The notes under the pieces are model-generated. The model saw only the letters and a program-made list of their open reading frames with translations, did not search any database and was not told the origin of the DNA. A stretch of DNA of 64,000 nt, from the sequence record OR670491, one strand, 5' to 3'. Of this stretch, positions 30,531-54,199 are shown one piece after another; the stretch's first letter is position 1; each line of letters opens with the position of its first letter. The translations under genes were made by a program, and so were the position numbers. Source of the stretch: Escherichia phage vB_EcoM_JNE01.

Positions 30531-31055
30531 ATGAAATATACAGTACTGTCAGCACAAGACACAGAGATATGGCTTGGTAACGTATTAAAAACACTGATGG
30601 TTATAAAGAAGTTGATTTCATCTATCGGTGCTATTGAGACTAATCTCAAGCAAGATATCTTAAATGACTTCCACCGAAACGCGTACATGAAGTTCTACTC
30701 CAATATGTTCTATGGACTTTATGATTCTGATGATATCTGCATTTTTCCAAGTGGGAAAGCATGGTCATTAAACAGTGCATGTTTCAGTGATCTAAGGTAC
30801 AGTTTAACCCAAGAACAAGTGGATGCAAGAAAATACTTGGAACAAATCATGGATGATGGTACAATTACTTTCGTATCGGAAATCAGTCATTGCTGGAATG
30901 TCTATGCAGACAAACCATTCAATATTTCAGAAGAAGATATCATCAATTACACCCGCATCATGAGAATTCATGAATGTGTTAAAATGGCATTAAAAGATAT
31001 AGGACTATACGATGAAGCATGTAACTTGGATGAAGATAGCAGAAGTAGTAGCTGA
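30531..31055 (+). CDS. hypothetical protein (174 aa)
   Basis: ORF. Confidence 0.5.
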   Translation: MKYTVLSAQDTEIWLGNVLKTLMVIKKLISSIGAIETNLKQDILNDFHRNAYMKFYSNMFYGLYDSDDICIFPSGKAWSLNSACFSDLRYSLTQEQVDARKYLEQIMDDGTITFVSEISHCWNVYADKPFNISEEDIINYTRIMRIHECVKMALKDIGLYDEACNLDEDSRSSS

Positions 31056-31488
31056 GGAAAGTAAGTGTCTTTCCCAGCACGTAGGTTGTGTAATCGTCAA
31101 GAATGACCGAGTGTTAAGTACTGGATACAATGGTACTCCATCTAAGCAGGTAAACTGTTGTGATGCGAATGCAAATTTGGTTCACGATGGTAAGTTTCAA
31201 GATTGGGTATCTGAGGATGCAAAACATGAACACCATGAGTGGAGTAATCTCCATGAGATTCATGCTGAGATGAATGCAATTCTTTACAGTTCTCCTACAG
31301 AACGTCAAGGTGCAACACTTTACAGTACTCTCCAACCGTGTTATACTTGTTCTAAGTTAATCGCTGGAAGTGGTATTAAGCGTGTTATCTATATGAAAAG
31401 CTACCCAAGAACTCCAGCAGAAGCCATCAAAGTACTGGAAGATGCTGGGATTGAAGTTAACTGTATTTTTGACATGGGATTAAAATAA
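31012..31488 (+). CDS. cd: dCMP deaminase
   Basis: ESKC..VGCVIV..TGYNG..VNCCD..HAEMNAIL..PCYTCSKLIAGSGIKRV; zinc-binding HAE/PCxxC deaminase motifs as in T4 Cd. Confidence 0.8.
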   Translation: MKHVTWMKIAEVVAEESKCLSQHVGCVIVKNDRVLSTGYNGTPSKQVNCCDANANLVHDGKFQDWVSEDAKHEHHEWSNLHEIHAEMNAILYSSPTERQGATLYSTLQPCYTCSKLIAGSGIKRVIYMKSYPRTPAEAIKVLEDAGIEVNCIFDMGLK

Positions 31489-32022: not shown

Positions 32023-32051
32023 TTGACTTATGGCAAATCTAGTGATACAAT
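32023..32051 (+). promoter_or_regulatory. sigma70-like promoter (TTGACT-17-TACAAT)
   Basis: Hexamers with 17-nt spacer; ~45 nt upstream of ATG 32093. Confidence 0.5.
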
Positions 32052-32092
32052 GCAAGAAACAACATAAAGAGGGCAAAAAAGTGTATCGATTC

Positions 32093-32692
32093 ATGAAGGA
32101 AGTGTTTCAAGCAGTTATCGTTATGATGCTTATCAATTTCCCATGCAGTGCAGGTGTGGAACGAACAAGTGTCATGCGATATTATGAGGAACCTAATGCT
32201 CTGGTGGTTATATCAGAGTTAACGGATGGTTCTGCTGACCGTATAATCAATTTTTACGATAAGACCCCATTCAAAACATTAATCATTACATCTCCAGGTG
32301 GGAGTGTAGATGCAGGTCTGAAATTGGGTTCTTTAGTGAAAGAAAATGGAATTCAAGTGATTGTTGTAAAGTACTGCAACTCTGCATGTTCCCTCGTGTA
32401 CTTCAGTTCACCGAAGGATAAGAGACTAATGGAAGATGATTCAGTACTTGGACTACATAACGTTTCAATTGAAAGCAAAGGGGGTGATGGTGATAACACT
32501 TATGTGACTATTCGACAGTTGAAGCAGTTCACAGAGGAATTGTCATCTAAAGTAGGTTTTATGTTTACGTTGTACGCCAGTAATGGTATTCCTACAAACG
32601 TACTAATGCGTATCGCAACTGCACGTGGTGATGATGTAATTGTTGTCACTAAAAAAGAATTAGAAGTTTGGGAAGCATCAATCCCTGACTGA
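32093..32692 (+). CDS. secreted ClpP/S49-like serine peptidase (putative)
   Basis: Signal-like N-terminus MKEVFQAVIVMMLINFPCSAG; TSPGGSV; CNSACS and GLHNVS motifs resembling ClpP Ser/His regions. Confidence 0.5.
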   Translation: MKEVFQAVIVMMLINFPCSAGVERTSVMRYYEEPNALVVISELTDGSADRIINFYDKTPFKTLIITSPGGSVDAGLKLGSLVKENGIQVIVVKYCNSACSLVYFSSPKDKRLMEDDSVLGLHNVSIESKGGDGDNTYVTIRQLKQFTEELSSKVGFMFTLYASNGIPTNVLMRIATARGDDVIVVTKKELEVWEASIPD

Positions 32693-33063: not shown

Positions 33064-33972
33064 TTAAGCTGCACTTACAACATAAGTACATTCAGCAGTA
33101 TGTGAACCATCAACTGTAGTTACGATAACACTAGCATTACCTTCACCAACTAATGTCACTAAACCTGCATTTGATACAGTAAGAACTTCATCGTTAGTAC
33201 TTGACCATACAACATCTTTGTTAGCTGCATTTACTGGGAGTACAGTTGCAATTAGTGTTTCGGTTCCACCAATTGGGCCATTACTTGATGTTTTACTTAA
33301 AGTAACACCAGTAACTGGGGTATTGACAACATATGCACAAGATGCTACTTTAGAACCATCAACTGTTGTTGCGTTGACTGTTGCTGAACCGTTACCAACT
33401 AGAGTTACTAATCCAGAATTAGACACGGTGAGTACTGCGTCATTAGTACTTGACCATACAACTGATTTATTTGTTGCATTTTCAGGTAATACAGTTGCAA
33501 CTAGTGTTTCAGAACCACCAATCTGACCATTACTAGAATTTTTATTCAATGAAATACTTTCGACTGGAACAACAACTGCGACATACTTAGTCGCGTACTT
33601 ACCAGTTTGTACTTCATTGCCATTAGTAAGAATTACTTTATGGGTGAAAAATTTATATGCAAAACCGAGTGCTTCCATAGTTGTTGCATCATAAACTTTA
33701 ACAGCGAATTCATCACGACCAAGTGCACTTGCAATTTCTTGGGCAGTGGCTGATAAATCAAGTAGGTTACGATTTTTATCTCGACCAACCATTGATACTC
33801 TTTGATAAACAGTAGTTGAATCACTATCAACTAAGTCAAACATGCGAGTACTACACTCGTTGATAATGTATAGTTCTTTATCAATTTCTTGAGCACTGTG
33901 ATCAGTTGCTGCAAAAACACAGATACCACCAACGTTGAATGGCAATTCACCAAATTTAGCTATAGGCTTCAT
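33064..33972 (-). CDS. Ig-like (Big_2 repeat) domain protein, Hoc/decoration- or tail-like
   Basis: Only reverse-strand gene; two ~85-aa repeats ...GGSETL.ATVLP.NA.NK.VVWSSTND.VLTVSN.GLVTLVG.G.A.V..TTVDGS...; AGGAG RBS. Confidence 0.6.
   Translation of the reverse strand: MKPIAKFGELPFNVGGICVFAATDHSAQEIDKELYIINECSTRMFDLVDSDSTTVYQRVSMVGRDKNRNLLDLSATAQEIASALGRDEFAVKVYDATTMEALGFAYKFFTHKVILTNGNEVQTGKYATKYVAVVVPVESISLNKNSSNGQIGGSETLVATVLPENATNKSVVWSSTNDAVLTVSNSGLVTLVGNGSATVNATTVDGSKVASCAYVVNTPVTGVTLSKTSSNGPIGGTETLIATVLPVNAANKDVVWSSTNDEVLTVSNAGLVTLVGEGNASVIVTTVDGSHTAECTYVVSAA
33100..33620 (-). repeat. tandem duplication (~255 bp period) encoding two Ig-like domains
   Basis: Repeated peptide blocks in both the - frame and the + shadow frame. 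Confidence 0.5.
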
Positions 33973-34711: not shown

Positions 34712-34906
34712 ATGATGACATGGGATATTCTTGACATTGTTTTGCAGTTCTTGATGATTTTGATTGCAGTTGTTTGGTACAATCACATTGTTCTGTTATA
34801 TAATGAAGTTCGTAGTACTAAAGCAGATAAACATTTGACGTACCACATTTCAATCATCGTAAGTGCTTCAATTGTTCTTCTAACGAACTATTTGTTTGCA
34901 CGTTGA
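34712..34906 (+). CDS. small membrane protein (64 aa)
   Basis: Two hydrophobic segments. Confidence 0.45.
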   Translation: MMTWDILDIVLQFLMILIAVVWYNHIVLLYNEVRSTKADKHLTYHISIIVSASIVLLTNYLFAR

Positions 34907-34917
34907 AAGGTCAACAT

Positions 34918-35670
34918 ATGTCTACACAATCCTTTTTAGAAAAAGCAGGGGAAAAACGTTTACTGATAATCAGCGGGGCTGGGTTATCGGTTGAAAGTGG
35001 GATGGAGCCATTTCGTTTTGATGATGGCTTATGGGATAACTTTCAAATCAATGACGTGTGTAATATTGCACGTCTTAGTTCCAAATATCATATAGTACAT
35101 GCATTCTATAATACTCTAAGAGTAAAATTAGGTTCGTGTGAACCAAATGCAATGCACTATTACATCAAATCATTAGAGGATCAGTACAAAGATAATTTCT
35201 TACACATGACCTCCAATATGGATGATTTGTACACTCGAATCGGTGGAACCGAGTTGAAGCTTCATGGTAATCTACGAGAAGTTATTAAAAACTACTCAAT
35301 CAATAGTGATGACTATGAAGTAATTGACTGTGGTTATGAACCGTTCATTCCAGAGACTGATGTGTTCTCTAAACCAAATGTTGTTATGATTGGTGAATAT
35401 CATCGTTATGTGGATGGGAACCGTCTTCCTATCTACGAAGAACGAAATGAAGTGTTGCGTAGTCTTACTGAAAATGATACAGTAATTGTTATTGGGAGCA
35501 GTGATACAGTACTGGTATGGTCCAGACTAGCTGGGGCGTTACCTTGTTATAGTGTTACTGTTAACGTCAGAAAGAATGACAATGACTTCCTATTCAATGA
35601 ACGTATCATTAAGCCAGCAACTAAAGCAATTCCAGTACTGGAGCCAATCATTAAGGAAAGAATGAAATGA
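34918..35670 (+). CDS. Sir2-family protein (NAD+-dependent deacylase/ADP-ribosyltransferase/NADase-like), no Zn-ribbon module
   Basis: GAGLSVESGMEPFRFDDGLW, TSNMDDLYTRIGG, KLHGNL, VIVIGSSDTVL match sirtuin motifs; ATG 34918 after GAAAGG. Confidence 0.65.
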   Translation: MSTQSFLEKAGEKRLLIISGAGLSVESGMEPFRFDDGLWDNFQINDVCNIARLSSKYHIVHAFYNTLRVKLGSCEPNAMHYYIKSLEDQYKDNFLHMTSNMDDLYTRIGGTELKLHGNLREVIKNYSINSDDYEVIDCGYEPFIPETDVFSKPNVVMIGEYHRYVDGNRLPIYEERNEVLRSLTENDTVIVIGSSDTVLVWSRLAGALPCYSVTVNVRKNDNDFLFNERIIKPATKAIPVLEPIIKERMK

Positions 35671-36224
35671 GTTTGAGAGAAGTACCACTCGGAGAATTTG
35701 GCAAACAAGCAAACTTTGTATTCTGTTACTTCTTTGCACGAAATTGTAATCCATATGAGAATTACGAGTTGAATGATATTCCAGTAGTTAATCTGGTACT
35801 CCTTCAACTCCGTTGGGATGGGTTGATGGGTGGATGTGGAGGAACAGTTGAAGATTCTGATACTTCACTTGAAGCTGCGTTGAAGCGTGAAATCCAAGAA
35901 GAAATGGATTATAATATTTCCATTGAACAGTTGAAACCTCTAAAGACGTTTGAATTGTTCCCTGGTGCTAACACTCATAGCTTCAGTTATGAAGTCACAT
36001 ATGATGAGTTGAAAGCGATTCGTGACGGGTACAGTACTGCTAAACATGCCAGTGCTGAAGTAGCGGGTGTAAATTTATGTCACATTTCTCGATATTCTAA
36101 GGGAAAAAATCGAGAAGCAGGATATAATAATCTCATGACACAAAACTTCATTGGAACAGCTAAGGAAGAATTGCAGTACTTAGTTGAAAATGAAAACTTA
36201 CTTATCAGTTACTTACAAGGGTAG
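35667..36224 (+). CDS. Nudix-like hydrolase (putative, divergent Nudix box)
   Basis: GGCGGTVEDSDTSLEAALKREIQEEMDY resembles GX5EX7REUXEEXGU with altered spacing. Confidence 0.4.
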   Translation: MSLREVPLGEFGKQANFVFCYFFARNCNPYENYELNDIPVVNLVLLQLRWDGLMGGCGGTVEDSDTSLEAALKREIQEEMDYNISIEQLKPLKTFELFPGANTHSFSYEVTYDELKAIRDGYSTAKHASAEVAGVNLCHISRYSKGKNREAGYNNLMTQNFIGTAKEELQYLVENENLLISYLQG

Positions 36225-36230
36225 AACAAA

Positions 36231-36551
36231 ATGTCATATGAAATGTTCCTCGATGATATTCGTAACCCAGGATACTATTATCCAGGTCGTTCGATGGTTG
36301 TATGTCGTGATTTTAAAAGTGCATGTAAACAAGTTGAAAAATTTGGTATTCCATCATTTATTTCATTCGATCACGATTTGGGCGACATGAATTATGATGA
36401 AAAAACTGGGTATTCCTTCGCTAAATGGATTATTGATTATATGTTTGAGCACGAAATCAAAACACCTTTTGCATTTCATGTTCACAGTAGTAATCCAGTT
36501 GGTAAAGTGAATATCGAACATTACCTTAACAATGCATTCGAAAATTTATGA
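36231..36551 (+). CDS. hypothetical protein (106 aa), conserved acidic motifs
   Basis: FLDDIR and SFDHDLG motifs; no family assigned. Confidence 0.45.
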   Translation: MSYEMFLDDIRNPGYYYPGRSMVVCRDFKSACKQVEKFGIPSFISFDHDLGDMNYDEKTGYSFAKWIIDYMFEHEIKTPFAFHVHSSNPVGKVNIEHYLNNAFENL

Positions 36552-36888: not shown

Positions 36889-38328
36889 ATGAAAAAATAT
36901 ACAATTGACACAAACGTACTACTATCTGATCCAAATGCTACCATTGCTTTTGATGGAGCAGCTATCATTCTACCGTTCACAGTACTTGAAGAATTGGATT
37001 CAATCAAAAGTCGTAATGTGGATGTTTCCCGTGATGCTCGTGTTGCAATCCGTAATATTGAAGCAATCCTTTCTGATGCATCACATGAAGAAATTAGTAG
37101 TACTGGTGTTAATATTGCTGATGTTCATACTAATATGAGTCCTGAAAGCAAATTGTTTGTTATTACAAGCGAAGAAGCTGAAGCACTAATTCGCACTGCT
37201 GGTAACGAAGAGAAAGTTCAAACTCTTCTAAAAAGCACAGTACCAGATGATAAAATCATTTTAGTAGCATTAGCAACTGATTCAGTACTGGTTACCCGTG
37301 ATATCAATATGCGTATCAAGGCTCTAAGCTACGGGGTGGAAGTTCAAGATTACCGTCATGATATCGTGATTGGTGATAGTGATTTGATTCACATTGGTCA
37401 ACATCACCTTGACCTACATTTCTGGGATGTGTATAGTAATCTGACTGATGTATCTATTCAGTCTGAACAAGTTGGTCGTCGTTTGTACCACTACATTCCA
37501 AAAAGCTTGATTGAACATATCATGCCACAAAATATTTGCATCGGTGATTACCTATATGATAATGCTGATGTTCTATTTGTGTACGAAGGCCAATCTGCAA
37601 TTGAAGAAGATGATGGTACTTTAACACCAGAAGATATTCTTGTATTCCAAGATATTGGACAATCTGTTGCTCTACGTGCTAAAGTGTGGGATATTAAGGC
37701 TAAGAATATTCAACAAGCACTAGCAATCAACAGTATCCTAGATCCTGATGTTCATCTAACAGTACTGTTGGGTTCCGCAGGTACTGGTAAAACGCTAATT
37801 ACCATTGCGACTGCACTTGAATTGGTTCTTGAGAAGAAGAAATATGACCGTATTATGTTCTCAAAACCACAAGATTCACAATGGGCCGAAATCGGTTTCT
37901 TACCAGGCACTGAAATGGAAAAAATGCTACCACATTGTGGCCCTGCATTGGATGCTTTGGAATTCTTACATAAAGATGATGCATCACCACAAGGTAGTAT
38001 TGAGGAAATAATCAAGCGTAATGTTATTCAGTTCAAAGCATTGAACTTCATTCGCGGTCGTTCATTTACCAACACTATTCTGGTTGTGGATGAGTTTCAG
38101 AACATCACACCTGCTCAGGCTAAGACAATCCTTACCCGTGCTGGCATGAACTGCAAAGTGATTATTCTTGGGAACTTGGCACAGATTGATAGTAAATTCA
38201 TTAGCCCAGTTAACAGCGGCTTAACATATGTTGTTGAGAAATTTAAAAACTGGGATGGTTGTCGAGTAATCGAACTCGAAGGTGTTGTTCGTTCACCACT
38301 GGCAGAATTTGCTGAAGAAAATATGTAA
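36889..38328 (+). CDS. phoH: PhoH-like ATPase with N-terminal PIN domain
   Basis: PIN-like YTIDTNVLLSD...; Walker A LLGSAGTGKTLITIA; Walker B-like ILVVDEFQN. Confidence 0.8.
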   Translation: MKKYTIDTNVLLSDPNATIAFDGAAIILPFTVLEELDSIKSRNVDVSRDARVAIRNIEAILSDASHEEISSTGVNIADVHTNMSPESKLFVITSEEAEALIRTAGNEEKVQTLLKSTVPDDKIILVALATDSVLVTRDINMRIKALSYGVEVQDYRHDIVIGDSDLIHIGQHHLDLHFWDVYSNLTDVSIQSEQVGRRLYHYIPKSLIEHIMPQNICIGDYLYDNADVLFVYEGQSAIEEDDGTLTPEDILVFQDIGQSVALRAKVWDIKAKNIQQALAINSILDPDVHLTVLLGSAGTGKTLITIATALELVLEKKKYDRIMFSKPQDSQWAEIGFLPGTEMEKMLPHCGPALDALEFLHKDDASPQGSIEEIIKRNVIQFKALNFIRGRSFTNTILVVDEFQNITPAQAKTILTRAGMNCKVIILGNLAQIDSKFISPVNSGLTYVVEKFKNWDGCRVIELEGVVRSPLAEFAEENM

Positions 38329-38374: not shown

Positions 38375-39655
38375 GTGATAATAAAACATCTGTATTATAT
38401 TGACTCAAATTTCAGAAAATACGATAAAGTTTCAAAACTTAATCCAAAATACATTACAGATGTTATTTTCCAAGAAAAATACAACATAGATCGAAACAGT
38501 ACTGAAATACTACAGGATGATATATCATCATATACACCAAACGTAACGGGTTTTTATTATATAAAATACCCAACTGGTGTTAGAAAAGTTTATGCTTTAA
38601 AATGTAATGAGTGCTCTAAAAACTCAGTATTACATGGCGAAGGAATATATCTGGTTCACTTGTCACACATCAAAAACGGAATCATTTCGTGTGGGTGTGC
38701 AAAACGCACAAACTGGACACCATATCAATATTACATAAAAATGATATCAGAATGTAAAAATCGTAATTGCATTTTTTTAGGTTACGATAAAAAACACTTA
38801 CGTTTATATTGTCTCGAACATGGTTACTGGAATACCACATCCAAAGCACACTTCTTTAATGGGAAAGGATGTAGTAAATGTGGGGACACCAATTCAAGAG
38901 TGTTGAGAACAAAAGACAGTTATTTTCATATATCTAAATTTAAAATCTTAAATGCGTATAATTATCGACGTTCCGACAAGATTGATAGTAGTGGTCGCTT
39001 GCGTTATTGGGAATATATGTGTAAGAAATGTTCACATGATGAGTATGTTAGGCTCGGTTTGTGTAATGGGATTTTTACATCATTTAATAGTGATTTAGTA
39101 AAGGGTAAGAAATCATGTCGTTGTTCAAGTAACTATAGATGGACAGAAAAACAGCGTGAATATCAAATCACCAAACTCCTAAAATCCAATTTTCCTCACA
39201 TTAGCTTTAAAGGTTGGGTAAATAGTTATAAAAATATCCATAGTAAGGCGATTTTAAATTGTAATATTCATAATAATTATACGCAAAAAGTAAACTACAT
39301 ACTTAATAATAATTGTGGTTGTCCACAATGTGCTGGGATGACACAGACAGAATGTTATATAAATGTAATATATGATGTGTTTCCAATTGCTATAAAATAT
39401 GGAATTTCAACACATACAAAAAACCGCGTTTGTAGTCAAAATAATAAATCACCATTTGACGTTATTAATCATGGAATTTGGGATTTTGAAAATCCATATT
39501 TATGCAAAATGGCAGAAAATGAATGCAAGCGAACGGTAAGTCGTGTTCTATCAGAACGCGAGCTACCTGACGGATTTACTGAAACCGCTGAAGTGAAATA
39601 TATTGATGATATAATTAAAATATATGAAAGCTGGGGTGGTATCAAACGAAAATAG
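38375..39655 (+). CDS. Cys-rich multi-CxxC protein (426 aa), very AT-rich gene
   Basis: Repeated CxxC/CxC motifs (CNEC, CGC, CSKCGD, CKKCSHDE, CRCSS, CGCPQC); lower GC than flanks. Confidence 0.5.
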   Translation: MIIKHLYYIDSNFRKYDKVSKLNPKYITDVIFQEKYNIDRNSTEILQDDISSYTPNVTGFYYIKYPTGVRKVYALKCNECSKNSVLHGEGIYLVHLSHIKNGIISCGCAKRTNWTPYQYYIKMISECKNRNCIFLGYDKKHLRLYCLEHGYWNTTSKAHFFNGKGCSKCGDTNSRVLRTKDSYFHISKFKILNAYNYRRSDKIDSSGRLRYWEYMCKKCSHDEYVRLGLCNGIFTSFNSDLVKGKKSCRCSSNYRWTEKQREYQITKLLKSNFPHISFKGWVNSYKNIHSKAILNCNIHNNYTQKVNYILNNNCGCPQCAGMTQTECYINVIYDVFPIAIKYGISTHTKNRVCSQNNKSPFDVINHGIWDFENPYLCKMAENECKRTVSRVLSERELPDGFTETAEVKYIDDIIKIYESWGGIKRK

Positions 39656-43439: not shown

Positions 43440-44057
43440 ATGACAGCAGCCGACAAGTACTGGTGGATTTACAACCACGCCTCATTCGTCAACAAAGATT
43501 TAGTATATCCAAAGATTGAGATTGAACCACATAACGTATGCCCTGATACCAATCGCATTGAAGACCATGAATATCTAAATACAAAGGTTCAGTACTGGGT
43601 AGAGTTGATGACCCCTGAATTCGATGAAGATTCACAAAACTGGATTCTTTCACACGATTATCAGTTAGATTGTGGTGGTGATACCTTTGAAGAAGCAATT
43701 GATGCAGTGTACAATAAGGTTTTGGAACGTTACGGTACATACAAACAAGAAGATGCAGATGCGTTATTTGATTCATTGTTTAAAAAATCATCACAACCAA
43801 ATCCAGCATACCAGCAATTTAGCAATCCACATGAACGATTATACAGTGCTACGTTTCTGTTGTTGAATTACGATGACAAGTTCTCGCTGATTGATAGCAT
43901 AGATACTCGTAAAAATACAATAAAGTCCTTGCAGAAGTACATTGCTTCTTGTACAATAGAGCAATCAGAGAAAGCAAAGATTGCATTAGAAGATGAAGAA
44001 TGTTTGCTTTGGTTGCAAGAACTATCACTTAAAACAGGCGTGGATTTATTACTATGA
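43440..44057 (+). CDS. hypothetical protein (~205 aa)
   Basis: ATG 43440 after GGGGA. Confidence 0.5.
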   Translation: MTAADKYWWIYNHASFVNKDLVYPKIEIEPHNVCPDTNRIEDHEYLNTKVQYWVELMTPEFDEDSQNWILSHDYQLDCGGDTFEEAIDAVYNKVLERYGTYKQEDADALFDSLFKKSSQPNPAYQQFSNPHERLYSATFLLLNYDDKFSLIDSIDTRKNTIKSLQKYIASCTIEQSEKAKIALEDEECLLWLQELSLKTGVDLLL

Positions 44058-44422
44058 ACAGTAAACTGGAAAAACTAATTGAAGAACTTCGACGGATGCC
44101 GCCAATTGAGCAAGTTGGCAATTACAAGCGTTATCGCGTTATAGCACGAGCACTGGATAAGAAAGGTCGAGTACTGGCAACTCGTACCAACTCTTATACA
44201 CAAACTCATCCTAAACAGAAAGGGTTTGCGATTCGTGCTGGACGTCCACAAGGTGAGTTTCTTCATGCTGAAATTTCATGTTTACTGGCTGCACGGGCTG
44301 AAGTTCATACTCTGTTGATTGCACGAGTCAGTAAAGATGGCATTCCAGTTCCAGCTAAACCATGCGAGATTTGCACTTTAGCTATCCAAGAATATGGAGT
44401 AAAAGAAATTATTCACACATGA
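44054..44422 (+). CDS. small CDA-fold zinc deaminase-like protein
   Basis: HAEISCLLAA ... PCEICTLAI (H[AC]E / PCxxC). Confidence 0.5.
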   Translation: MNSKLEKLIEELRRMPPIEQVGNYKRYRVIARALDKKGRVLATRTNSYTQTHPKQKGFAIRAGRPQGEFLHAEISCLLAARAEVHTLLIARVSKDGIPVPAKPCEICTLAIQEYGVKEIIHT

Positions 44423-45200: not shown

Positions 45201-45303
45201 ACTTTTGATTGGCTTATTAGCAATGATATTGTTTTTTATATGTTCCGCTCCAATTAATACTATGGTGTTGATTTGGGCAGTTGTAATTTTAGCAGTACTT
45301 TAA
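45187..45303 (+). CDS. small hydrophobic peptide (38 aa)
   Basis: MRIIKLLIGLLAMILFFICSAP...; terminator follows. Confidence 0.3.
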   Translation: MRIIKLLIGLLAMILFFICSAPINTMVLIWAVVILAVL

Positions 45304-45304
45304 A

Positions 45305-45327
45305 AGCACCCTAGTGGTGCTTTTTTC
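45305..45327 (+). terminator. rho-independent terminator
   Basis: AGCACC-CTAGT-GGTGCT then TTTTTT. Confidence 0.7.
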
Positions 45328-45464
45328 ATTTGTACAAATAAAAACCTATCTACCCTTTCATTGATTCAGGTCAAAAGAAACATAGCGTTCTGGAGCTATA
45401 ATGTTGTCTTGTGGAGTTAAATAACTTCACCCCAGATGAATTATAGAATACAAGGAAGAATTAA

Positions 45465-47267
45465 ATGCAACTAGATAAACTTTACACGGACGTGACTAAT
45501 TTCCTCAATCAGAACAATTCTGACCTAACCAACGAAAACGCGAATAAGGATGCTAAATGTGTCAATACCCATAGAGACTTGCTTGCAGGTATTCTTTCTA
45601 AACACTATTCACAAGATGTTATTGCACCCGACCTGATGCAATGGCATAATGATGGATATGGTCATATTCATGATTTGGACTACTATATTAGCCCGTTAAC
45701 TAACTGTTGCTTAGTAAATTACCCTGATATGCTCAAGAACGGTTTTACTATTGGCTGTGCCAAAATTGAAGAACCAAAGAGTTTCAGTGTAGCGTGTACA
45801 GTACTGACACAGATTGTTCAAGCTGTTGCTAGTTCCCAGTACGGTGGTCAATCACTGGCACATATTGATGTTGGTTTAGAACCATACGTCGAAAAGTCAT
45901 GGAATAAGCTATTAGCTAAACAAAAGAAATACAATCTAAGTACTGAATATATTGAAGAAGAATTACGTAAAGAAGTATATGATGGTTGTCAAACTCTCCT
46001 GTACCAGACTAACTCTATGATTAGTACCAATGGTCAGGCTGCATTCATTTCTTTAAGCTTAGGACTGAATACTTCCAAATTTGGCAAACTAATCACTGAA
46101 CAGTACTTAAAAGTACATGAAAATGGTTTAGGTGTTAATAAGATCACTCCGGTGTTCCCTAAAGTGATTTTCTTTTTACAAGATGGCATTAACATGAATC
46201 CAAAGGATATTAGCTACGATATGAAGCAATTGGCTATGCGTTGTGCTTCTAAGCGTATATACCCTGATTTCGTTAGTGTTCCACTAAATCACAAGGTTAC
46301 TGGGGCATCAAGTGCTGTTACTCCTATGGGATGCCGAAGCTTCTTAGGTAAATGGGAAGATGCTAATGGAAACGAACAGTACAATGGTCGCTTCAACTTA
46401 GGTGTAGTGTCTATCAACTTACCGCTAATTGCTCTTGAAAGCACTTCAGATGGTGATTTCTTTGATAAGATAGACGAGCACATGAATATTGCGTACAGAG
46501 CACAGATGAACCGTGTAGAGCGTTTAAAAGGTACTAAGGCTAAACAGAACCCTATCCTGTTCATGGAAGGTGCTCTTGCTCGTCTTGGTGCAGAAGAAAC
46601 TATTGACAAACTCTTCTACGATGGTTATGCTAGTATCAGTATTGGATATGTAGGATTAGTTGAATGTTCAGAGATTTTGACTGGTTCAATCAGTAAAGAG
46701 TTCTGCATGTCAGTACTGAATTATATGAAAGTGAAATGTGATGAATTCAAGAATGAGAGCAATATAGCCTTTAGTCTATATGGAACTCCTGCTGAATCAT
46801 TATGTTACAAGTTTGCTCGTTGTATCGAGGTAAAACACCCATCAGTACTTAAACGTGACTACATTACAAACTCATTCCATCAACCTGTATGGGTTGAGAG
46901 TACTCCATTCGAGAAGTGGGTTTATGAAGAAGGATTTGCATATTTGAGTGCAGGTGGTAACATTAGCTACGTCGAGTCACCAAATCTTTCAAACAACATA
47001 CAAGCACTAGAAACACTAATAAACTACGCATATACTAAGATTCCTTACTTTGGTATCAACCAACCAGTGGATCGTTGTTATGAGTGTAATTTTGAAGGTG
47101 AGTTCAGTGTTGATAAGCACGGGTTCCATTGTCCAGTTTGTGATAACAGAAATGAGAAAACCATCTCTGTAATTCGTCGTGTATCTGGATACTTAGGAAA
47201 TCCGTCTTCCCGTGGTTTTAACAAGGGTAAACAGCAAGAATGTTGTGAGAGAGTACAACACAAATAA
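45465..47267 (+). CDS. nrdD: anaerobic ribonucleoside-triphosphate reductase (class III RNR)
   Basis: C-terminal Zn site CYECNF...CPVCDN and glycyl-radical motif RRVSGYLG; ORF is continuous. Confidence 0.85.
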   Translation: MQLDKLYTDVTNFLNQNNSDLTNENANKDAKCVNTHRDLLAGILSKHYSQDVIAPDLMQWHNDGYGHIHDLDYYISPLTNCCLVNYPDMLKNGFTIGCAKIEEPKSFSVACTVLTQIVQAVASSQYGGQSLAHIDVGLEPYVEKSWNKLLAKQKKYNLSTEYIEEELRKEVYDGCQTLLYQTNSMISTNGQAAFISLSLGLNTSKFGKLITEQYLKVHENGLGVNKITPVFPKVIFFLQDGINMNPKDISYDMKQLAMRCASKRIYPDFVSVPLNHKVTGASSAVTPMGCRSFLGKWEDANGNEQYNGRFNLGVVSINLPLIALESTSDGDFFDKIDEHMNIAYRAQMNRVERLKGTKAKQNPILFMEGALARLGAEETIDKLFYDGYASISIGYVGLVECSEILTGSISKEFCMSVLNYMKVKCDEFKNESNIAFSLYGTPAESLCYKFARCIEVKHPSVLKRDYITNSFHQPVWVESTPFEKWVYEEGFAYLSAGGNISYVESPNLSNNIQALETLINYAYTKIPYFGINQPVDRCYECNFEGEFSVDKHGFHCPVCDNRNEKTISVIRRVSGYLGNPSSRGFNKGKQQECCERVQHK

Positions 47268-47274
47268 GGTACAT

Positions 47275-47604
47275 ATGTGCGATTTAAAACCAATAGTTGT
47301 TAACAAATACAAAGAACAGTATGATGTGTACATTGGTCGTGGGTCGAAATGGGGAAATCCATTCACCCACATTAAAGACAAGGAAACTAAAGCAGAATTC
47401 ATTGTTGCGACCCGCGAAGAGTCAATTGAGAAGTTCAGAGACTATATTCTGGAACGTATCGAAAAGGGTGAAGTTCAAATTGATGAACTCCTTGAACTCG
47501 CTGGGAAACGTCTTGGTTGCTTTTGTAAGCCCAAATCATGTCATGGTGATGTTCTTGTGGAAATAGTGAGTGCTATACTAGATGAACTATCAGACGATAA
47601 TTAA
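47275..47604 (+). CDS. DUF4326-like protein (YIGRGSKWGNPF motif)
   Basis: ATG 47275 after AAGG; motifs YIGRG..WGNPF and LGCFCKPKSCHGDVL; family assignment from memory. Confidence 0.45.
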   Translation: MCDLKPIVVNKYKEQYDVYIGRGSKWGNPFTHIKDKETKAEFIVATREESIEKFRDYILERIEKGEVQIDELLELAGKRLGCFCKPKSCHGDVLVEIVSAILDELSDDN

Positions 47605-48052
47605 AGACGATTTAGTTAACGGGGAGGGAGTACGATGCTCTCTCTTCGTGAGTGGTTGTAGCCACGGATGTGATGGGTGTTTCAATGAAGAAGCATGGGA
47701 TTACAGAAGTGGATCAAAATTCAGTACTGCTGAAGTTGAAGTTATTCTTAAAGAGTTAGATAAGCCATATGTTACCGGATTATCTTTACTTGGGGGAGAT
47801 CCTCTTATGCCAAAGAATATCAGTACTGTTATTGATTTATGTAAAACTGTAAAAGAATTACATCCTACCAAAACAATTTGGTGCTGGAGTGGCTATACTT
47901 TAGAAGAGATTAAACTAAATCATTCTAAGGATATTCTTCAGTACTTAGATGTTTTAGTAGATGGTAAGTTTATTGAATCCGAAAAGAATCTAAGATTACC
48001 TTTTAGGGGTTCTAATAACCAACGTATTCTTCACAAAGACAAAGATTTTTAA
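47582..48052 (+). CDS. nrdG: anaerobic RNR activating protein (radical SAM)
   Basis: GEGVRCSLFVSGCSHGCDGCFN (CxxxCxxC cluster). Confidence 0.8.
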   Translation: MNYQTIIKDDLVNGEGVRCSLFVSGCSHGCDGCFNEEAWDYRSGSKFSTAEVEVILKELDKPYVTGLSLLGGDPLMPKNISTVIDLCKTVKELHPTKTIWCWSGYTLEEIKLNHSKDILQYLDVLVDGKFIESEKNLRLPFRGSNNQRILHKDKDF

Positions 48053-48057
48053 AATGT

Positions 48058-48082
48058 GGCTTCCCTAGTGGAAGCCTTTTTG
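48058..48082 (+). terminator. rho-independent terminator
   Basis: GGCTTCC-CTAGT-GGAAGCC then TTTTT. Confidence 0.7.
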
Positions 48083-48156: not shown

Positions 48157-50856
48157 ATGTCAAAGAAAATATATGGTGGCTTAGATGTCACACATAATGT
48201 TACAGTGAAAGGGAAACGTACTGTTCAAGGTATCAATGATCAAGTTTTTGATTCCAATGGTAACATGGAACTTGATACTTATACTAAAGAAGAAATTCTT
48301 GACGTAATTAGTATGATGCCTTTGTCACATTATGGTACACATAACTATCTACCTGCTGGTGTAAGTGGTGACTTCAACGGAGCATCAGAAAACACATCAC
48401 AGCGTAGAAACAAAATTCTATTAGAAGATGACGGAACATTAGTAATGTTGCGTGCTGGTACAAACGGTAGTGTGGAAGGTCTATTCTACTCTTACCTAGC
48501 GAACGCATTAACTATTGAAGATATGGGTCGTACCGTGAATACTGGTAAGCAGTATCAACCAGGGTTTTTGGGTTCCACAAAAGTTGCTTTCGGTTTATAT
48601 AACACTGATAGTAATATAATGATTGGTCAATATAAAGATACAACTAATAGCACTACTGGTTATTTTGTATCTATTACAAACAATACACTTGATGATACTC
48701 AGCACTCAGGATTTATCATTAATCAGTACACTGACCTTTCACCACAAGGTAACATTGAATATGCAATGATGGCAGAAGATGGTTCAATCTATGTGTTTAG
48801 TTTAGATGTTGCAGATAATAAAATGCACATGATTGTACAGCGTATTGTGTTTAATATTAGTGCTGGTACATACACTACATCACGTATATCTGGATGGACT
48901 ACAAAAACATTCTACAATACAACTATCAGTGCTAATACTAATATAGTATTAACCAACAGAACTTATTCAACTGATATTGTAGATAAACCATATGCTCTTG
49001 TACCAACTAACCTACGTGGTATTGGTATATACATGACTTCATATGATTTATATGTTGCACAACAGCCTGGTACTCAGAACTTCCGTTTCCGTTTAAATGG
49101 GGACTTATGGGCGACAATGGCAGACTATAATACACGTCCACAACATAGTTTTAGTTTCAATTTCAATATGAGTACTAAACAATGTACGTTAGATACTGGC
49201 AATGACATTGGTTCATTCCAAGCACCTATCGTTATTACAAATACTGGGACTCAATTAGTTGCTACTGGTAATGCTCTAAACAAAGATGATTTTTATAACC
49301 ACAGTGGTGCACGTAACATTTATAGTGGATATTACTATTCAGTAGAAGGTGTTGCTTTCTGTACAATATGTCCAAACCTAGCAGAACCATTACACATGGA
49401 AAAAGGTCATTACCCAGCACAATCTGTTTATAGCATGATAAATGTTAGAGCAGTGAGTTGTACAGATTTTCGTGATGGAAGAGTTGGTCCGACATTTGGT
49501 TCAGCAGTAGGGTCATATATCAACGGTGTTGAATTGTTACCTGATAACAGTACTAAACAGTTCTCTCGTGCTTCCGGTACAGGTTCTTACCAACCATCAT
49601 ATGCAGTGCATAAGAGTACTCCTAACTTTACGTTCAAATCACTTTCAATGGGGACTATTCAGGGTTATGAGCCAACAGCAGAACGTGCAAACGTAGCTGA
49701 TACGACCAACAACCGAGTATTCATTAGTTCAATTTCAGGAAGTACAGTTACAACTAATGGTGGTGTACTAATATGTGGTCAACGTTACTCACAGTCGTTA
49801 TCATATGATAAGTACATGAATGGTACTAACGTAATTAGTGTTACTCAATCAGTACTTGACAACTTCAGAACAGCAGAGTATGCTAAAGTTGCTAGTTCAT
49901 GGAACCTATCAAGTGCATCGGGTAAAGACATGTCGTTGTTTGTTCCACAGCAATCTGACATTCCAGCGTTTGTGTTTCTCAGTTCAGTGACGAACAATAA
50001 CCAGAACTATATTCGTGTTGCAGAAGTTAATGTTAATACAAGAGTAGGGAACATTACTAGTATTACATTTAAACGTTTAGTTTATGAAAACGTTCATGGT
50101 GATAACTTCGTTTCGAATACATCAGGTTCATTCTCTTCTTCATCTGTTGGTATGACAATTTATGATGGTGGTTCATTCTATTTCTTAGGTGGTTCTGATC
50201 CATTAACACATAATACTATCGGTAACACAAATACACATATGTTCCGTGCTTATGTTACTAAATCCACTGCAACTATTGATAGCTTCATTATTGCGGGTGG
50301 TCACGCCAGTTATGAACAAGGTGCTCAACCAGCAGCGTTGCCTGGATTGGGTTTTGGTATTTTTGCTGCAATTGACTATTCTAACAAAATGACATTCGTA
50401 CCTTTTGGAACAACTATTGCTGATTATAACGCATGGACACAGAAAGCGACTGCAATAAACTTAGTATCACAAGACGTTGCACAAGGTTTTATCGTGTACT
50501 TCACCGAAGAAACACCAGTAATACTATCAGGTAAATCATTTACTCTACCTATTTCGAATATTGATTTAACAACTGTAAAAGCTAATCCAGCCAATACGAC
50601 GTTTTATCTTTATATTAAAATGGAGCAAGGTAATGTTAAATACCACATAACTACTGAAGTTATTTCAGAAGCTGGTACTTCTGCATATAACGTATTTTGG
50701 ATTGGAACAATTAAAACTAACTCTCTTCAAATTGAAACAGTAAATGTTGAAAAACGTTCTCGTTTGGATATATTTGGTGCATCACTAGAAGCAGCAGGTT
50801 CTTCATTCCCAGTAAGTTATGGTTTACCATCACAAACAGGAACTATCAACTGGTAA
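48157..50856 (+). CDS. putative tail fibre/receptor-binding protein, paralog 1 (899 aa)
   Basis: Large Ser/Thr/Gly/Asn-rich protein; N- and C-terminal blocks shared with 50869 and 51473. Confidence 0.4.
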   Translation: MSKKIYGGLDVTHNVTVKGKRTVQGINDQVFDSNGNMELDTYTKEEILDVISMMPLSHYGTHNYLPAGVSGDFNGASENTSQRRNKILLEDDGTLVMLRAGTNGSVEGLFYSYLANALTIEDMGRTVNTGKQYQPGFLGSTKVAFGLYNTDSNIMIGQYKDTTNSTTGYFVSITNNTLDDTQHSGFIINQYTDLSPQGNIEYAMMAEDGSIYVFSLDVADNKMHMIVQRIVFNISAGTYTTSRISGWTTKTFYNTTISANTNIVLTNRTYSTDIVDKPYALVPTNLRGIGIYMTSYDLYVAQQPGTQNFRFRLNGDLWATMADYNTRPQHSFSFNFNMSTKQCTLDTGNDIGSFQAPIVITNTGTQLVATGNALNKDDFYNHSGARNIYSGYYYSVEGVAFCTICPNLAEPLHMEKGHYPAQSVYSMINVRAVSCTDFRDGRVGPTFGSAVGSYINGVELLPDNSTKQFSRASGTGSYQPSYAVHKSTPNFTFKSLSMGTIQGYEPTAERANVADTTNNRVFISSISGSTVTTNGGVLICGQRYSQSLSYDKYMNGTNVISVTQSVLDNFRTAEYAKVASSWNLSSASGKDMSLFVPQQSDIPAFVFLSSVTNNNQNYIRVAEVNVNTRVGNITSITFKRLVYENVHGDNFVSNTSGSFSSSSVGMTIYDGGSFYFLGGSDPLTHNTIGNTNTHMFRAYVTKSTATIDSFIIAGGHASYEQGAQPAALPGLGFGIFAAIDYSNKMTFVPFGTTIADYNAWTQKATAINLVSQDVAQGFIVYFTEETPVILSGKSFTLPISNIDLTTVKANPANTTFYLYIKMEQGNVKYHITTEVISEAGTSAYNVFWIGTIKTNSLQIETVNVEKRSRLDIFGASLEAAGSSFPVSYGLPSQTGTINW

Positions 50857-50868
50857 GGGATTACAATT

Positions 50869-51456
50869 ATGGCTTATATTATAAGATCAGATATTGAAGC
50901 AATGACAACAATTAAGTCCAGGGGATTAGACACTGGACTTTCATTAACAGACATTGATGACGTATCTTATTCAACTGATGTTAACGGGGAATGTACGTTC
51001 CCTGTATTAACCTCAGATGAAATCGACTACATTATGAATGGTTTACCACTGTCACAGTACGGTGAACTATATGATTCAACCAGTCTAGGTGTTACATTTT
51101 CTGGTTATGATTTGAAATTTGGACGAATTGTTCCGGCGTTTATTGGTGGACATTTATATGATTACCCAGTCAGTACTGTTAAAGCTAAAACAGTAACGTC
51201 AGGTACACACACACAATATGTGTATGCTACGTTAGTACTGGGTGTACCATTATATGAAATTTCAGCGACCGCCATTGCTGAAACACAAATTCAAATGTTC
51301 ATTGGTACAATAACAGTTGGTACAGCAGGAATAACAGCAGCAAACATAGAACGCGTTTCAAGGTTCAGTACATATAGACCTAGTACTACTCAGAAAGGTT
51401 CGTCCTTCCCAGTCAGTACAGGAAATCCGGCACAAACTGGTTCTATAGGCTGGTAA
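50869..51456 (+). CDS. short paralog of the tail-fibre-like family (195 aa)
   Basis: Contains only the shared N-terminal (LPLSQYGE) and C-terminal (RFSTYRPSTTQKGSSFPVSTGNPAQTGSIGW) blocks. Confidence 0.4.
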   Translation: MAYIIRSDIEAMTTIKSRGLDTGLSLTDIDDVSYSTDVNGECTFPVLTSDEIDYIMNGLPLSQYGELYDSTSLGVTFSGYDLKFGRIVPAFIGGHLYDYPVSTVKAKTVTSGTHTQYVYATLVLGVPLYEISATAIAETQIQMFIGTITVGTAGITAANIERVSRFSTYRPSTTQKGSSFPVSTGNPAQTGSIGW

Positions 51457-51472: not shown

Positions 51473-54199
51473 ATGTCATCACAAAGAATTATTGGTAACG
51501 CCAGTATATTAGGCAACTTGGCAATTGCTGGAAAAAATGCAATGCGTACTTTTAATGGAGTCTCACCAGACTCCAATACTGGTATTGTCGATTACCCAAT
51601 ATACAAACGTTCAGAAGTACAGAAAATTCTTGATATGATGCCTATTTCGCGTATAGGGGAGATGGACTATCTCCCTTTGAACGTAAATGGTTCATATGAA
51701 GGTGCAACTTCAAACTCAGCTACATATCGTATTCAGCCAACTATCATTGAAGATGATGGTACTGGTGTAGTAATACGTGCAGGCACAAACGGAAGTAAAA
51801 ATGGTTACTATTACTCGTTTATACGAGATTTAAGAAACATTACTTCTTTTACTCAGGATATGGTTATATCAACTACAACTGAATATAAACCATCTATTCT
51901 AAGTACTGGTGAAAATATTATTCGTTTCATCGGCACAAATGGTTATGAACTTTTAGTTTCATATACCTCCGGCTCTAATTATGTTTTCACATTAACAAAC
52001 GGTACATTCAACGAAGTATCACATATTCATGCTAAGTTAGCTGAATCAAGATTCGGTACTGACAAACCATTATATGCTCATGTGGTTGGTTCGAATATTT
52101 TTGTTTGGTGCAAAGACACCACGGTAGCAAACGGTGGATTAGCATATACATTGTATACAGTTTCCAGAAGTAATATAGTTGATGGTACTATGACTTCTTT
52201 TGCTAAAGTGACTGGTTTTTCTGGTCAAACAGTAAGGAATACAAACTATAGTGCATCAAATAATATTAGAGTTTTTGACCGTTACTGGTCTACAACTACT
52301 GGTACTGATTCACTATATGATATTGTTAGTCCAGTGAACAGTGTTGAATATATTGATTATAATGATTATAATATCCAAGCAAATGCCAGTACTGACAACT
52401 CTAAAATACGAGTTACTTTATACATAACTCCACGTTTCAAGACTCCATTAGCAATTTCAACTGTTCAGCCAACTGGTATTAGTTTTGTTTATAATATTAG
52501 TTCAAAGGTTATGACATTAGATGGGTCAGCAAGAGCACCAGCAACAGCAGCATACACTAATAATAATTTTGTTGTTACCAACCCATTCTCAATTTCAATG
52601 AGTAACTTTACTGGTTCAACTAATAGTTCATCTTCATTAGGTGACTGCGGTTCAATCTGTCAAACATCAGATGGTCTTGTTTTTACATCAAAATCAAGAT
52701 GGATATCAGATGAAACCTATGGTTTACAACTATATAAAGTACAAGGTACTCCATACGATAGTTGGGTCGCTAGTACTCGTAAGTCCAGTGATTTAACTAA
52801 CGTAAATGTTAAACCAACATATGGTTCTGCTGTAGGGGAAAACTTACTTGGTGTTAGATTTATTGATAAAAGAAAAGTACTTCTTGCATGTTCCAGTACT
52901 AGCGATGGTGTTACTTATGGCTATGACAGTACTGTATCCTCTGATATAGGAGACTCTCCAGTATACACATATAATAGTGTTGTAACTGGGTCTACAATTG
53001 AAGGTTTTGCTCCTGAAGCTGGACGTGAATATCATGGAAATAGTTATGATTATACCGCTATGGTTTCTTTGATTGCGGCTGATGGAACAGTAAAAACATA
53101 TGGTTCTTCATTTATAGAAGGAATAGCCAAAGATGCAAATGGATTATTAGATCCAGATACAATGACATTCTCAGGAAAATACACAATGAGTAATACTGCT
53201 TTGATGAATCTCAAACAATCGATCATTGATAGTGCAGATATTACTGGGACCAGTACTTCTAGGATTTGTTTTTATTATGTACCTGATAATACATTCTCAA
53301 GATCTATGGCAGTTGTTTGTACATACAATCCAACTAACAACCAAGGTTATGCTATTTTTGCAGAAGTAAATGCTGTTCTAAGTGGTTCAGAAATTACAAG
53401 TGCATCAGTATATACAACCAGATATGAAGTACTTGGTAGTATATCAGGAATCCAAAGTAATGCTCTAATGAAGCGTTGTACTGGATTAACAGTTGCAAAA
53501 TACTCTGGATTCAATTATCTTGGTATTGATACTATCCATCAGTTCACAGTTCCTGGTGATGTTAGTCAGAAAATGATGATAGCTAAAGTTAAAAATGGTG
53601 ATATCAGTACTAACCGTTATTTTACAACCTATCATGTTAGCAACGGTTCAGCTTTCCAGAGTGGTGCTATCCCTGGTGGTGGATTCGGTTATTATAACTT
53701 CAGTAATTCCGACTTACAGACAAAAGCAGTTCTTTCAGTATTCGGGACAACAGAAGCCCAGATGGATGGTTTGATTGCTGGTACTGGTGCAGTACTGAAC
53801 AATTATGTTGTAGTTTCTCAAGATGTAGCTGCTGGTTTCAACGTGTACTTCACCCGTGAAGTTCCGGTGTTCCTTGCTGGTATGTTCGACCGTCTGGTAG
53901 TTCAGACACTTGACCTAACAACCATCAAGAGTAATCCAGCTAACAGTACTTTCTACATTTACATAGAAATGAACCGAAGTACTGGTAAGGCTTCTTATGT
54001 TGTGAGTACTATACTCCTTGATGAAACGTTGACACGAGCCTTCATAGGAACTATAATTACTGGTGCTACTAACATATCATCAATTGAAACAGAAAAAGTG
54101 ACAAGGTTCTTGACCTATCGCCCAAGTACAACAAAACGTGGTTCTGCAATCCCGTCTAGTACTGGCGTACCGTCAGGCACTGGTACACGTTGGAAATAA
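51473..54199 (+). CDS. putative tail fibre/receptor-binding protein, paralog 2 (908 aa)
   Basis: Shared termini with 48157; divergent centre. Confidence 0.4.
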   Translation: MSSQRIIGNASILGNLAIAGKNAMRTFNGVSPDSNTGIVDYPIYKRSEVQKILDMMPISRIGEMDYLPLNVNGSYEGATSNSATYRIQPTIIEDDGTGVVIRAGTNGSKNGYYYSFIRDLRNITSFTQDMVISTTTEYKPSILSTGENIIRFIGTNGYELLVSYTSGSNYVFTLTNGTFNEVSHIHAKLAESRFGTDKPLYAHVVGSNIFVWCKDTTVANGGLAYTLYTVSRSNIVDGTMTSFAKVTGFSGQTVRNTNYSASNNIRVFDRYWSTTTGTDSLYDIVSPVNSVEYIDYNDYNIQANASTDNSKIRVTLYITPRFKTPLAISTVQPTGISFVYNISSKVMTLDGSARAPATAAYTNNNFVVTNPFSISMSNFTGSTNSSSSLGDCGSICQTSDGLVFTSKSRWISDETYGLQLYKVQGTPYDSWVASTRKSSDLTNVNVKPTYGSAVGENLLGVRFIDKRKVLLACSSTSDGVTYGYDSTVSSDIGDSPVYTYNSVVTGSTIEGFAPEAGREYHGNSYDYTAMVSLIAADGTVKTYGSSFIEGIAKDANGLLDPDTMTFSGKYTMSNTALMNLKQSIIDSADITGTSTSRICFYYVPDNTFSRSMAVVCTYNPTNNQGYAIFAEVNAVLSGSEITSASVYTTRYEVLGSISGIQSNALMKRCTGLTVAKYSGFNYLGIDTIHQFTVPGDVSQKMMIAKVKNGDISTNRYFTTYHVSNGSAFQSGAIPGGGFGYYNFSNSDLQTKAVLSVFGTTEAQMDGLIAGTGAVLNNYVVVSQDVAAGFNVYFTREVPVFLAGMFDRLVVQTLDLTTIKSNPANSTFYIYIEMNRSTGKASYVVSTILLDETLTRAFIGTIITGATNISSIETEKVTRFLTYRPSTTKRGSAIPSSTGVPSGTGTRWK

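Follow-up and report, generated by a model that had tools for sequence, protein, structure and literature searches.

A DUF4326 gene between nrdD and nrdG in a 121Q-like jumbo coliphage, and its alternative positions in related phages

The DNA analyzed here is a stretch of 64,000 nucleotides (the window) from Escherichia phage vB_EcoM_JNE01 (sequence record OR670491), in which a small gene of the DUF4326 family lies between nrdD and nrdG, the genes for a class III ribonucleotide reductase (RNR) and its activase. The locus is made up of the following features:

45302-45324, plus strand: terminator-like hairpin with T-run upstream of nrdD (consensus scan), the 5' boundary of the unit
45465-47267, plus strand: nrdD, class III (anaerobic) ribonucleoside-triphosphate reductase, 600 amino acids (Pfam NRDD, 1e-160, and Gly_radical)
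47275-47604, plus strand: stand-alone DUF4326 gene (PF14216, T4 NrdA.1 family), 109 amino acids
47582-47604, plus strand: overlap of 23 nt between the 3' end of the DUF4326 gene and the 5' end of nrdG
47582-48052, plus strand: nrdG, radical S-adenosylmethionine activase of NrdD, 156 amino acids (TIGR02491, 195.5 bits against a cutoff of 126; Pfam Fer4_12, 6e-52)
48058-48076, plus strand: terminator-like GC-rich hairpin with T-run, 6 nt past the nrdG stop, the 3' boundary of the unit

An earlier note, made from the sequence alone, had described a 109-amino-acid open reading frame (ORF) between nrdD and nrdG that carries two motifs and overlaps the nrdG start, and the sequence bears this out. 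The ORF runs from the ATG at 47275 to the TAA at 47602-47604 and encodes MCDLKPIVVNKYKEQYDVYIGRGSKWGNPFTH...LGCFCKPKSCHGDVLVEIVSAILDELSDDN; both motifs, YIGRGSKWGNPF and CFCKPKSCHGD (which fits CxCxPxxCHGD), are found in the protein, and the overlap with nrdG amounts to the 23 nt listed above. The ATG at 47275, and not the upstream GTG at 47212, agrees with the starts of the orthologs (121Q: MDLKPIVV...) and is preceded by an AAGG Shine-Dalgarno-like motif. The tail of the protein, DELSDDN and stop (last seven codons), is conserved nrdG 5' sequence read in another frame, and the extent of the overlap is 23 nt also in a RaK2-like phage and 29 nt in 121Q. As the nrdG start lies within the DUF4326 gene and has only a weak Shine-Dalgarno match, translation of NrdG is probably coupled to that of the DUF4326 protein.

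The identity of the flanking genes is clear. NrdD passes the NCBIfam models NF006732 (752 bits, cutoff 657) and TIGR02487; its alignment to the former covers profile positions 98-705 of 712, and since it begins only at position 98 this suggests an enzyme that lacks the N-terminal ATP-cone regulatory domain. The NrdG N-terminus MNYQTI(I/V)KDDL recurs in two of the related contigs discussed below (L090 and L091). Within the two hairpins that bracket nrdD, the DUF4326 gene and nrdG there is no further terminator-like hairpin, and because the two enclose all three genes these are likely co-transcribed as one transcript. A perfect TATAAT hexamer is located at 45397-45402, between the 5' hairpin and nrdD (no -35 element was scored). 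An Rfam scan gave no match anywhere in the window.

The family name DUF4326 given in the earlier note turned out to be right: the protein matches the Pfam profile (PF14216) with 88.4 bits against a gathering cutoff of 25 (E = 5e-25; profile positions 4-82 of 82), and further matches are to PHROG 464 (E = 2e-42), whose function is unknown, and to the NrdA.1 protein of T4-type phages (Tequatrovirus; 43% identity, E = 2e-25). The conserved blocks Y-I-G-R-x-S-x-W-G-N-P and G-C-x-C-x-P-x-x-C-H-G-D are both present, and in its full-length model match, motif blocks, size and predicted fold the protein is like the viral members of PF14216, PHROG 464 and T4-type nrdA.1. We therefore consider membership of the DUF4326 family as practically certain. 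NCBIfam and PADLOC contain no model that matches the protein. The family is large, with 18,294 clusters at 50% identity (E <= 0.001), and ranges over phages, giant viruses and archaeal viruses. Two differences from T4 are nevertheless apparent: the gene in the window is part of the class III (nrdD/nrdG) operon and not of a td-nrdA-nrdB cluster, and unlike T4 NrdA.1 and some jumbo-phage copies the window protein is of a long form with a THIKDKETKAEFIV hairpin.

The protein is 100% identical to a deposited protein of phage vB_EcoM_JNE01, the window region is 98.6% identical to Escherichia phage Turkey5, and at least 31 121Q/PBECO4-like jumbo coliphages in GenBank align to it in one piece at ~81% identity; the window is 121Q-like jumbo coliphage DNA. 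Compared to the orthologs of Turkey5, 121Q and RaK2-like Klebsiella phages, the ratio of nonsynonymous to synonymous substitution (dN/dS) was 0.03-0.13, at dS values of 0.13 to >1, and the gene is thus under strong purifying selection. A spurious or overprinted ORF is ruled out by this ratio, the Pfam match and the confident fold, and a fragment or homolog of NrdA by BLASTP against T4-type NrdA (E = 2.5). Several GenBank records label DUF4326 genes as 'ribonucleotide reductase NrdA-like' (PHROG 24867), a label that seems to have been carried over from the gene name nrdA.1. The nrdG of Turkey5 is labelled 'antiviral protein' and its annotated start (L001 8249-8653) lies 66 nt downstream of the ATG equivalent to that in the window (L001 8183). 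The records with annotation problems are:

PQ471516 (L001 8249-8653)
OQ718158
PQ529420 (L004 4950-5336)

The order nrdD-DUF4326-nrdG is kept in the 121Q/PBECO4-like genomes (at least 31) as well as in the RaK2-like Klebsiella phages, where an extra 120-amino-acid ORF (L085 3610-3972) precedes the DUF4326 gene in the slot. The junction was compared to that of three uncultivated sister jumbo-phage contigs (L089/L271, L090/L272 and L091/L273; flanks extended to 10 kb), whose NrdG is 70-72% identical to that of the window, with the RaK2-like phages being equally distant. In L089/L271 and L091/L273 nrdD and nrdG overlap with no gene between them (in L091 the stop of nrdD and the start of nrdG share ATGA, as read directly from the sequence), and this empty junction sustains the description of the gene as inserted. 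In L093-L096 the two genes abut, in a locus without DUF4326. The slot of L090/L272 (L090 4403-6001) is occupied by three unrelated ORFs, called as 253 (overlapping the 3' end of nrdD), 170 and 149 amino acids, and these gave no match to the nucleotide-metabolism or DUF4326 queries. The nrdD-nrdG junction is a variable cargo site.

A slot that differs in this way among relatives (empty, DUF4326, DUF4326 plus a 120-amino-acid ORF, or three other ORFs) could also hold a selfish or mobile cassette without benefit to the phage, in the manner of the homing-endonuclease genes that have invaded RNR genes of phages, and GIY-YIG endonuclease genes are indeed occasional neighbours of DUF4326 elsewhere. 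In T4 the mobile gene mobE is inserted between nrdA and nrdB, and the present case is like such insertions in that an extra gene between two RNR genes is present in some relatives and absent from others. The resemblance ends there, as the DUF4326 gene has no endonuclease domain, is under strong purifying selection, and has been relocated in the genome and not lost. Pfam scans of the protein yielded no nuclease domain, by which a homing endonuclease is ruled out; a repeat scan found no direct or inverted repeats flanking 47268-47604 and no insertion scars; and the G+C content of the gene (38.8%) matches that of its neighbours (38.2% for nrdD). Given, moreover, that each related phage examined over the region retains a DUF4326 gene in it, a selfish cassette seems very unlikely indeed.

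The alternative position of the gene became clear from the extended contigs. L271, L272 and L273, all with a junction without DUF4326, carry a DUF4326 gene further downstream, at a distance of 7.3-8.4 kb from nrdG. The gene abuts a Thg1-like gene in L272 and begins ~470 nt after one in L271, and RlaP follows closely behind it in L271 and L273. At that downstream region 121Q has RlaP, with neither Thg1 nor a second DUF4326, and in the window the DUF4326 gene is the only one among 107 scanned ORFs, Thg1 is absent and RlaP is located at 56643-57896. Two further jumbo-phage lineages encode proteins that are 72% and 65% identical to that of the window directly after Thg1 and ~3 kb before RlaP, in a Thg1-DUF4326-RlaP region that is syntenic with the window at 48-58 kb. 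The Thg1-like genes (tRNA 3'-5' polymerase family) near upstream of DUF4326 are located at:

L187/L188, 4249-5336
L269, 4249-5315
L272, 17755-18809
L271, 16533-18083

The adjacency of Thg1 and DUF4326 persists despite a divergence of DUF4326 to ~40% identity, and every related phage examined over the nrdG-downstream region retains a DUF4326 gene, either there or at the junction. What this phage group conserves is thus that the gene is present, and not that it lies beside nrdD and nrdG. Of the two positions, that beside Thg1/RlaP is probably the older, since the deepest divergence of DUF4326 (down to 40% identity) spans it. Seen in this way, DUF4326 would be a position-changing accessory enzyme gene that came to occupy the nrdD-nrdG junction in the 121Q/RaK2 branch, with the junction of the sister phages being empty or filled by other cargo and their DUF4326 gene residing beside the genes for a Thg1-like 3'-5' polymerase and/or the RlaP nucleotidyltransferase.

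The association with reductase genes was followed in other phages as well. Among the Straboviridae the corresponding gene goes by the name nrdA.1. In Tequatrovirus and Lazarusvirus the order is td ... DUF4326 - nrdA - nrdB, with DUF4326 overlapping the start of nrdA, and in Slopekvirus it is nrdA - nrdB - DUF4326 - denA, with DUF4326 overlapping the end of nrdB. In Aeromonas phage Aes508 the order is td - DUF4326 - denA, and no nrdAB was found within the 7-kb stretch examined; here, too, the homolog belongs to the td/nrdAB/denA cluster, in spite of nrdAB not lying next to it. The gene is located elsewhere in a KVP40-like phage; in Kuttervirus it follows an SbcCD-like pair of genes for recombination endonuclease subunits and a small gene with a holin annotation, and in a T5-like phage it lies near a dUTPase gene. 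In a sample of 111 distinct DUF4326 loci from IMG/VR, in which an RNR gene was sought within 4-8 kb, such a gene was nearby in only two, 121Q itself and a RaK2-like contig.

These data bear on the possibility that DUF4326 is tied to ribonucleotide reduction or the deoxynucleoside triphosphate (dNTP) pool, either as a nucleotide phosphatase/phosphotransferase or as a thiol-based helper of NrdD/NrdG that was recruited into RNR operons. Such a role would fit the location of the gene within the nrdD-nrdG unit and its overlap with nrdG, the overlaps with nrdA and nrdB in the T4-like genera, the recurrence of td, frd, dUTPase, dCMP deaminase and MazG genes among its other neighbours, and the conserved cysteine cluster in the protein. 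Yet sister jumbo phages with an intact nrdD-nrdG pair have an empty slot and keep DUF4326 beside Thg1/RlaP, not one of the IMG/VR loci other than those of the 121Q/RaK2 type has an RNR gene in reach, the gene lies between td and denA in Aes508 and at other sites in the KVP40-like phage and Kuttervirus, and the domains to which it is fused process ADP-ribose and nucleic acids, with RNR domains never among them. We regard a tie of this kind as improbable, and the link to anaerobic ribonucleotide reduction implied by the earlier note is not supported, considering the association of the family with Thg1-like and RlaP genes in related jumbo phages and the absence of RNR genes near the sampled IMG/VR loci outside the 121Q/RaK2-type contigs. 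The link between DUF4326 and the reductase is positional, not functional; the existence of at least one further position of the gene in related jumbo phages, away from the RNR genes, argues against an RNR-specific role, and with good confidence the protein can be called position-flexible and not an RNR subunit.

Residue conservation was determined over 76 sequences that were 39-58% identical to the query, all representatives of 50%-identity clusters. Six residues, R22, N28, C82, C84, C89 and H90, were invariant in all 76, and Y19, I20, G21, W26, G27, P29, R47, L75, K78, L80, P86 and G91 were conserved in at least 90%. The AlphaFold model (predicted local distance difference test, pLDDT, 92.4; predicted template modelling score, pTM, 0.85) has short strands and helices at 47-64, 69-73 and 90-107; the loop C82-F-C84-K-P-K-S-C89 lies between a strand at 79-82 and the last of these helices. 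A Foldseek search returned the model of a Pseudomonas phage DUF4326 protein (K4RI33; E = 6e-14, TM 0.88), and against BFVD there were 34 matches at E <= 0.001, most of them annotated DUF4326 and the first outside the family being a DUF488 protein. Foldseek against the PDB gave no match with E below 2, and PDB sequence searches with the single protein and with the 76-sequence profile gave nothing meaningful. In Cys-phosphatases and rhodaneses the loop that bears the nucleophile sits between a strand and the N-terminus of a helix, and the predicted order of strand, Cys loop and helix in DUF4326 fits this layout, as judged from the secondary structure of the AlphaFold model only.

A clade of RapZ-C, DUF488 and DUF4326 was reportedly defined by Burroughs and Aravind in 2023 (NAR Genomics and Bioinformatics). 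Literature searches on nrdA.1 and DUF488 recovered no experimental function. Two papers from the same laboratory (PMC9503650, PMC7824862) predict that DUF4326 acts on terminal phosphates borne by the ribose of ADP-ribose derivatives and connects signalling via nicotinamide adenine dinucleotide (NAD) with DNA modification and replication. An hhalign comparison of the DUF4326 profile with the single sequence of E. coli RapZ-C was not significant. DUF4326 differs from RapZ in several ways: neither sequence nor profile comparison gave significant similarity, the CX5R arginine is lacking, RapZ has one cysteine where DUF4326 has three, and the DUF4326 protein is much smaller and stands alone. Placement in the rhodanese-phosphatase superfamily is plausible; the profile-profile tests of it were not significant, with shallow profiles.

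The same residues allow for a different view, namely that DUF4326 is a non-catalytic zinc-binding (CCCH) module for nucleic-acid or protein binding, for instance a small regulator or adaptor. C82, C84, C89 and H90, four of the six invariant residues, are together a typical set of zinc ligands, the protein is of very small size, and RapZ, its tentative best structural neighbour, is an RNA-binding RNase adaptor and no enzyme. Nevertheless, the adjacent C89 and H90 would be awkward as ligands of one metal ion, the invariant or near-invariant R22, N28, Y19, W26, R47 and K78 resemble a substrate pocket, and the domain is repeatedly fused to enzymes that act on ADP-ribose and nucleic acids. A zinc-binding module is accordingly rated as unlikely, though it comes first among the alternatives considered here, followed in order by the RNR or dNTP-pool helper, a NADAR-like glycosidase (see below) and the selfish cassette.

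The reading that we prefer is that of a small cysteine-dependent enzyme of the RapZ-C/DUF488/DUF4326 group within the rhodanese-phosphatase superfamily. The invariant loop C82-x-C84-x4-C89-H90 between the beta-strand and the helix N-terminus would provide the active site, with R22, N28, W26, R47 and K78 possibly backing the Cys loop, and the substrate might be a phosphate attached to ribose, either on a small molecule derived from a nucleotide or ADP-ribose or on an RNA or DNA end. Such an enzyme could serve a network of phage nucleic-acid repair and NAD/ADP-ribose counter-defence. This specific chemistry, a Cys-loop enzyme acting on ribose-linked phosphate, is a prediction and should be taken as tentative, its odds being slightly below even.

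Domain fusions provide a further view on the function. The partners in multidomain DUF4326 representatives include SLOG (YpsA/YAcAr/DprA-like), Macro, NADAR, RNase H and AlkB-like dioxygenase domains, and furthermore one RNA polymerase fragment and tandem DUF4326 copies; there was no RNR domain among the partners in the multidomain representatives examined. The substrates of these partners are ADP-ribose, nucleotides or damaged nucleic acids. NADAR (PF08719; YbiA) is a hydrolase that reverses the DarT-type ADP-ribosylation of guanine, and the frequent association of DUF4326 with NAD- and ADP-ribose-linked domains could suggest that DUF4326 itself is a miniature NADAR-like N-glycosidase that takes ADP-ribose off bases or metabolites. 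The Pfam scan reported only DUF4326 for the protein, without a NADAR match even at E up to 10, and its signature residues differ from those of NADAR. In P0191, DUF4326 is fused to a complete NADAR domain, and since this polypeptide carries both, their activities would be complementary rather than the same. We find a NADAR-like activity hard to credit.

An all-against-all clustering of the neighbours in 80 diverse IMG/VR loci gave no neighbour family that was present in over ~9% of the loci. The direct neighbours in these loci are typical of a replication module and include clamp loader, 5'-3' exonuclease, helicase, GIY-YIG endonuclease, PhoH, SLOG and dCMP deaminase genes. Among the gene families of the window, cREC (9 of 111 loci), PNKP (6 of 111) and ClpP recur near DUF4326 elsewhere; these are raw counts, and the apparent enrichment of cREC and PNKP is to be taken as a lead only. 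One locus has the order cREC-cREC-x-DUF4326-MTase-MTase-MazG, and other orders are UvrD-CYTH-x-DUF4326, SNase-DUF4326 and PhoH-DUF4326-ClpP. The window itself encodes SIR2-Nudix-cREC, PNKP, Rnl1 and RlaP, and plausible partner activities are therefore present in the phage. The genes for SIR2 (34903-35670, plus strand), a Nudt16-like Nudix protein (35667-36224, with a 4-nt overlap) and a cREC_REC 'cyclic-phosphate processing receiver' protein (36231-36551) are tightly packed; SIR2-Nudix-cREC (34903-36551) is a compact NAD/ADP-ribose-processing module. The RNA-repair genes are the following:

15903-17045, plus strand: T4 Rnl1-like RNA ligase
18141-19085, plus strand: PNKP (kinase and HAD phosphatase)
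56643-57896, plus strand: RlaP nucleotidyltransferase

Several observations weigh against the interpretation as a relocated Cys-loop enzyme. The DUF4326 proteins of L271-L273 share only 40-47% identity with that of the window, as compared to 70-72% for NrdG, and because they diverged more than NrdG, replacement of the allele is as possible as simple relocation in these three. The Cys loop is without the arginine that the CX5R signature of phosphatases calls for, and three cysteines and one histidine make up a classical zinc-ligand set. Alignments of RapZ-C and of YeaO-type DUF488 gave an hhalign probability below 1%, which is a weak test as these alignments are shallow (mostly >55-70% identity to the seed). 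Finally, two phage groups whose RNRs are of different classes both have the gene next to RNR genes, which could reflect a function in the nucleotide pool rather than chance. DUF4326 would then have been recruited independently into RNR operons of class Ia (T4-like) and class III (121Q/RaK2-like) and act on ribose-phosphate chemistry of the (deoxy)nucleotide pool; we attach little probability to this scenario, but if true it would amount to a new auxiliary activity coupled to ribonucleotide reduction. Taken as a whole, the view of DUF4326 as an accessory Cys-loop enzyme that is flexible in position and no component of the reductase has, in our judgment, somewhat the better chance of being correct.

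The remainder of the window contains a number of further genes:

22371-23114 and 26703-27494: two Metallophos phosphoesterases
25266-26684: ATP-dependent DNA ligase
28365-29060 and 32030-32692, plus strand: two ClpP-like genes
31012-31488 and 44054-44422, plus strand: two genes of cytidine/dCMP-deaminase fold, one MafB19-like
33064-33972, minus strand: Big_2 Ig-like protein gene (the window has only four ORFs on this strand)
48157-50856, 50869-51456 and 51473-54199, plus strand: two paralogous proteins of ~900 amino acids (899 and 908) flanking an ORF of 195 amino acids, directly downstream of nrdG

The 195-amino-acid ORF (50869-51456) matches parts of both large paralogs, homologs of which also occur in tandem in the sister phages. 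A CapR-domain gene (38375-39655, plus strand, 426 amino acids) lies between a PIN-PhoH gene (36889-38328) and an ORF of 65 amino acids; it is absent from L183 and L184, otherwise near-identical assemblies in which PhoH is directly followed by the 65-amino-acid ORF. A match to Dam methyltransferase was also recorded among the ORFs of the window.

The gene, its family and its arrangement are already present in public databases, mostly as 'hypothetical protein', and the functional prediction has been published before. New is the comparative part: in related jumbo phages the gene has at least two alternative positions, of which the RNR context is one. This shows that a location next to RNR genes should not be taken as evidence of function. 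The labels 'NrdA-like' for the DUF4326 gene and 'antiviral protein' for the nrdG of Turkey5 are misleading and are corrected here. For DUF4326, a very large viral family that is known by predicted function only, the variable position, the kept presence and the recurrence beside Thg1, RlaP, cREC and PNKP point towards RNA-end or ADP-ribose-phosphate chemistry and away from dNTP synthesis, and the nrdA.1 gene of T4 offers a tractable genetic model for the family.
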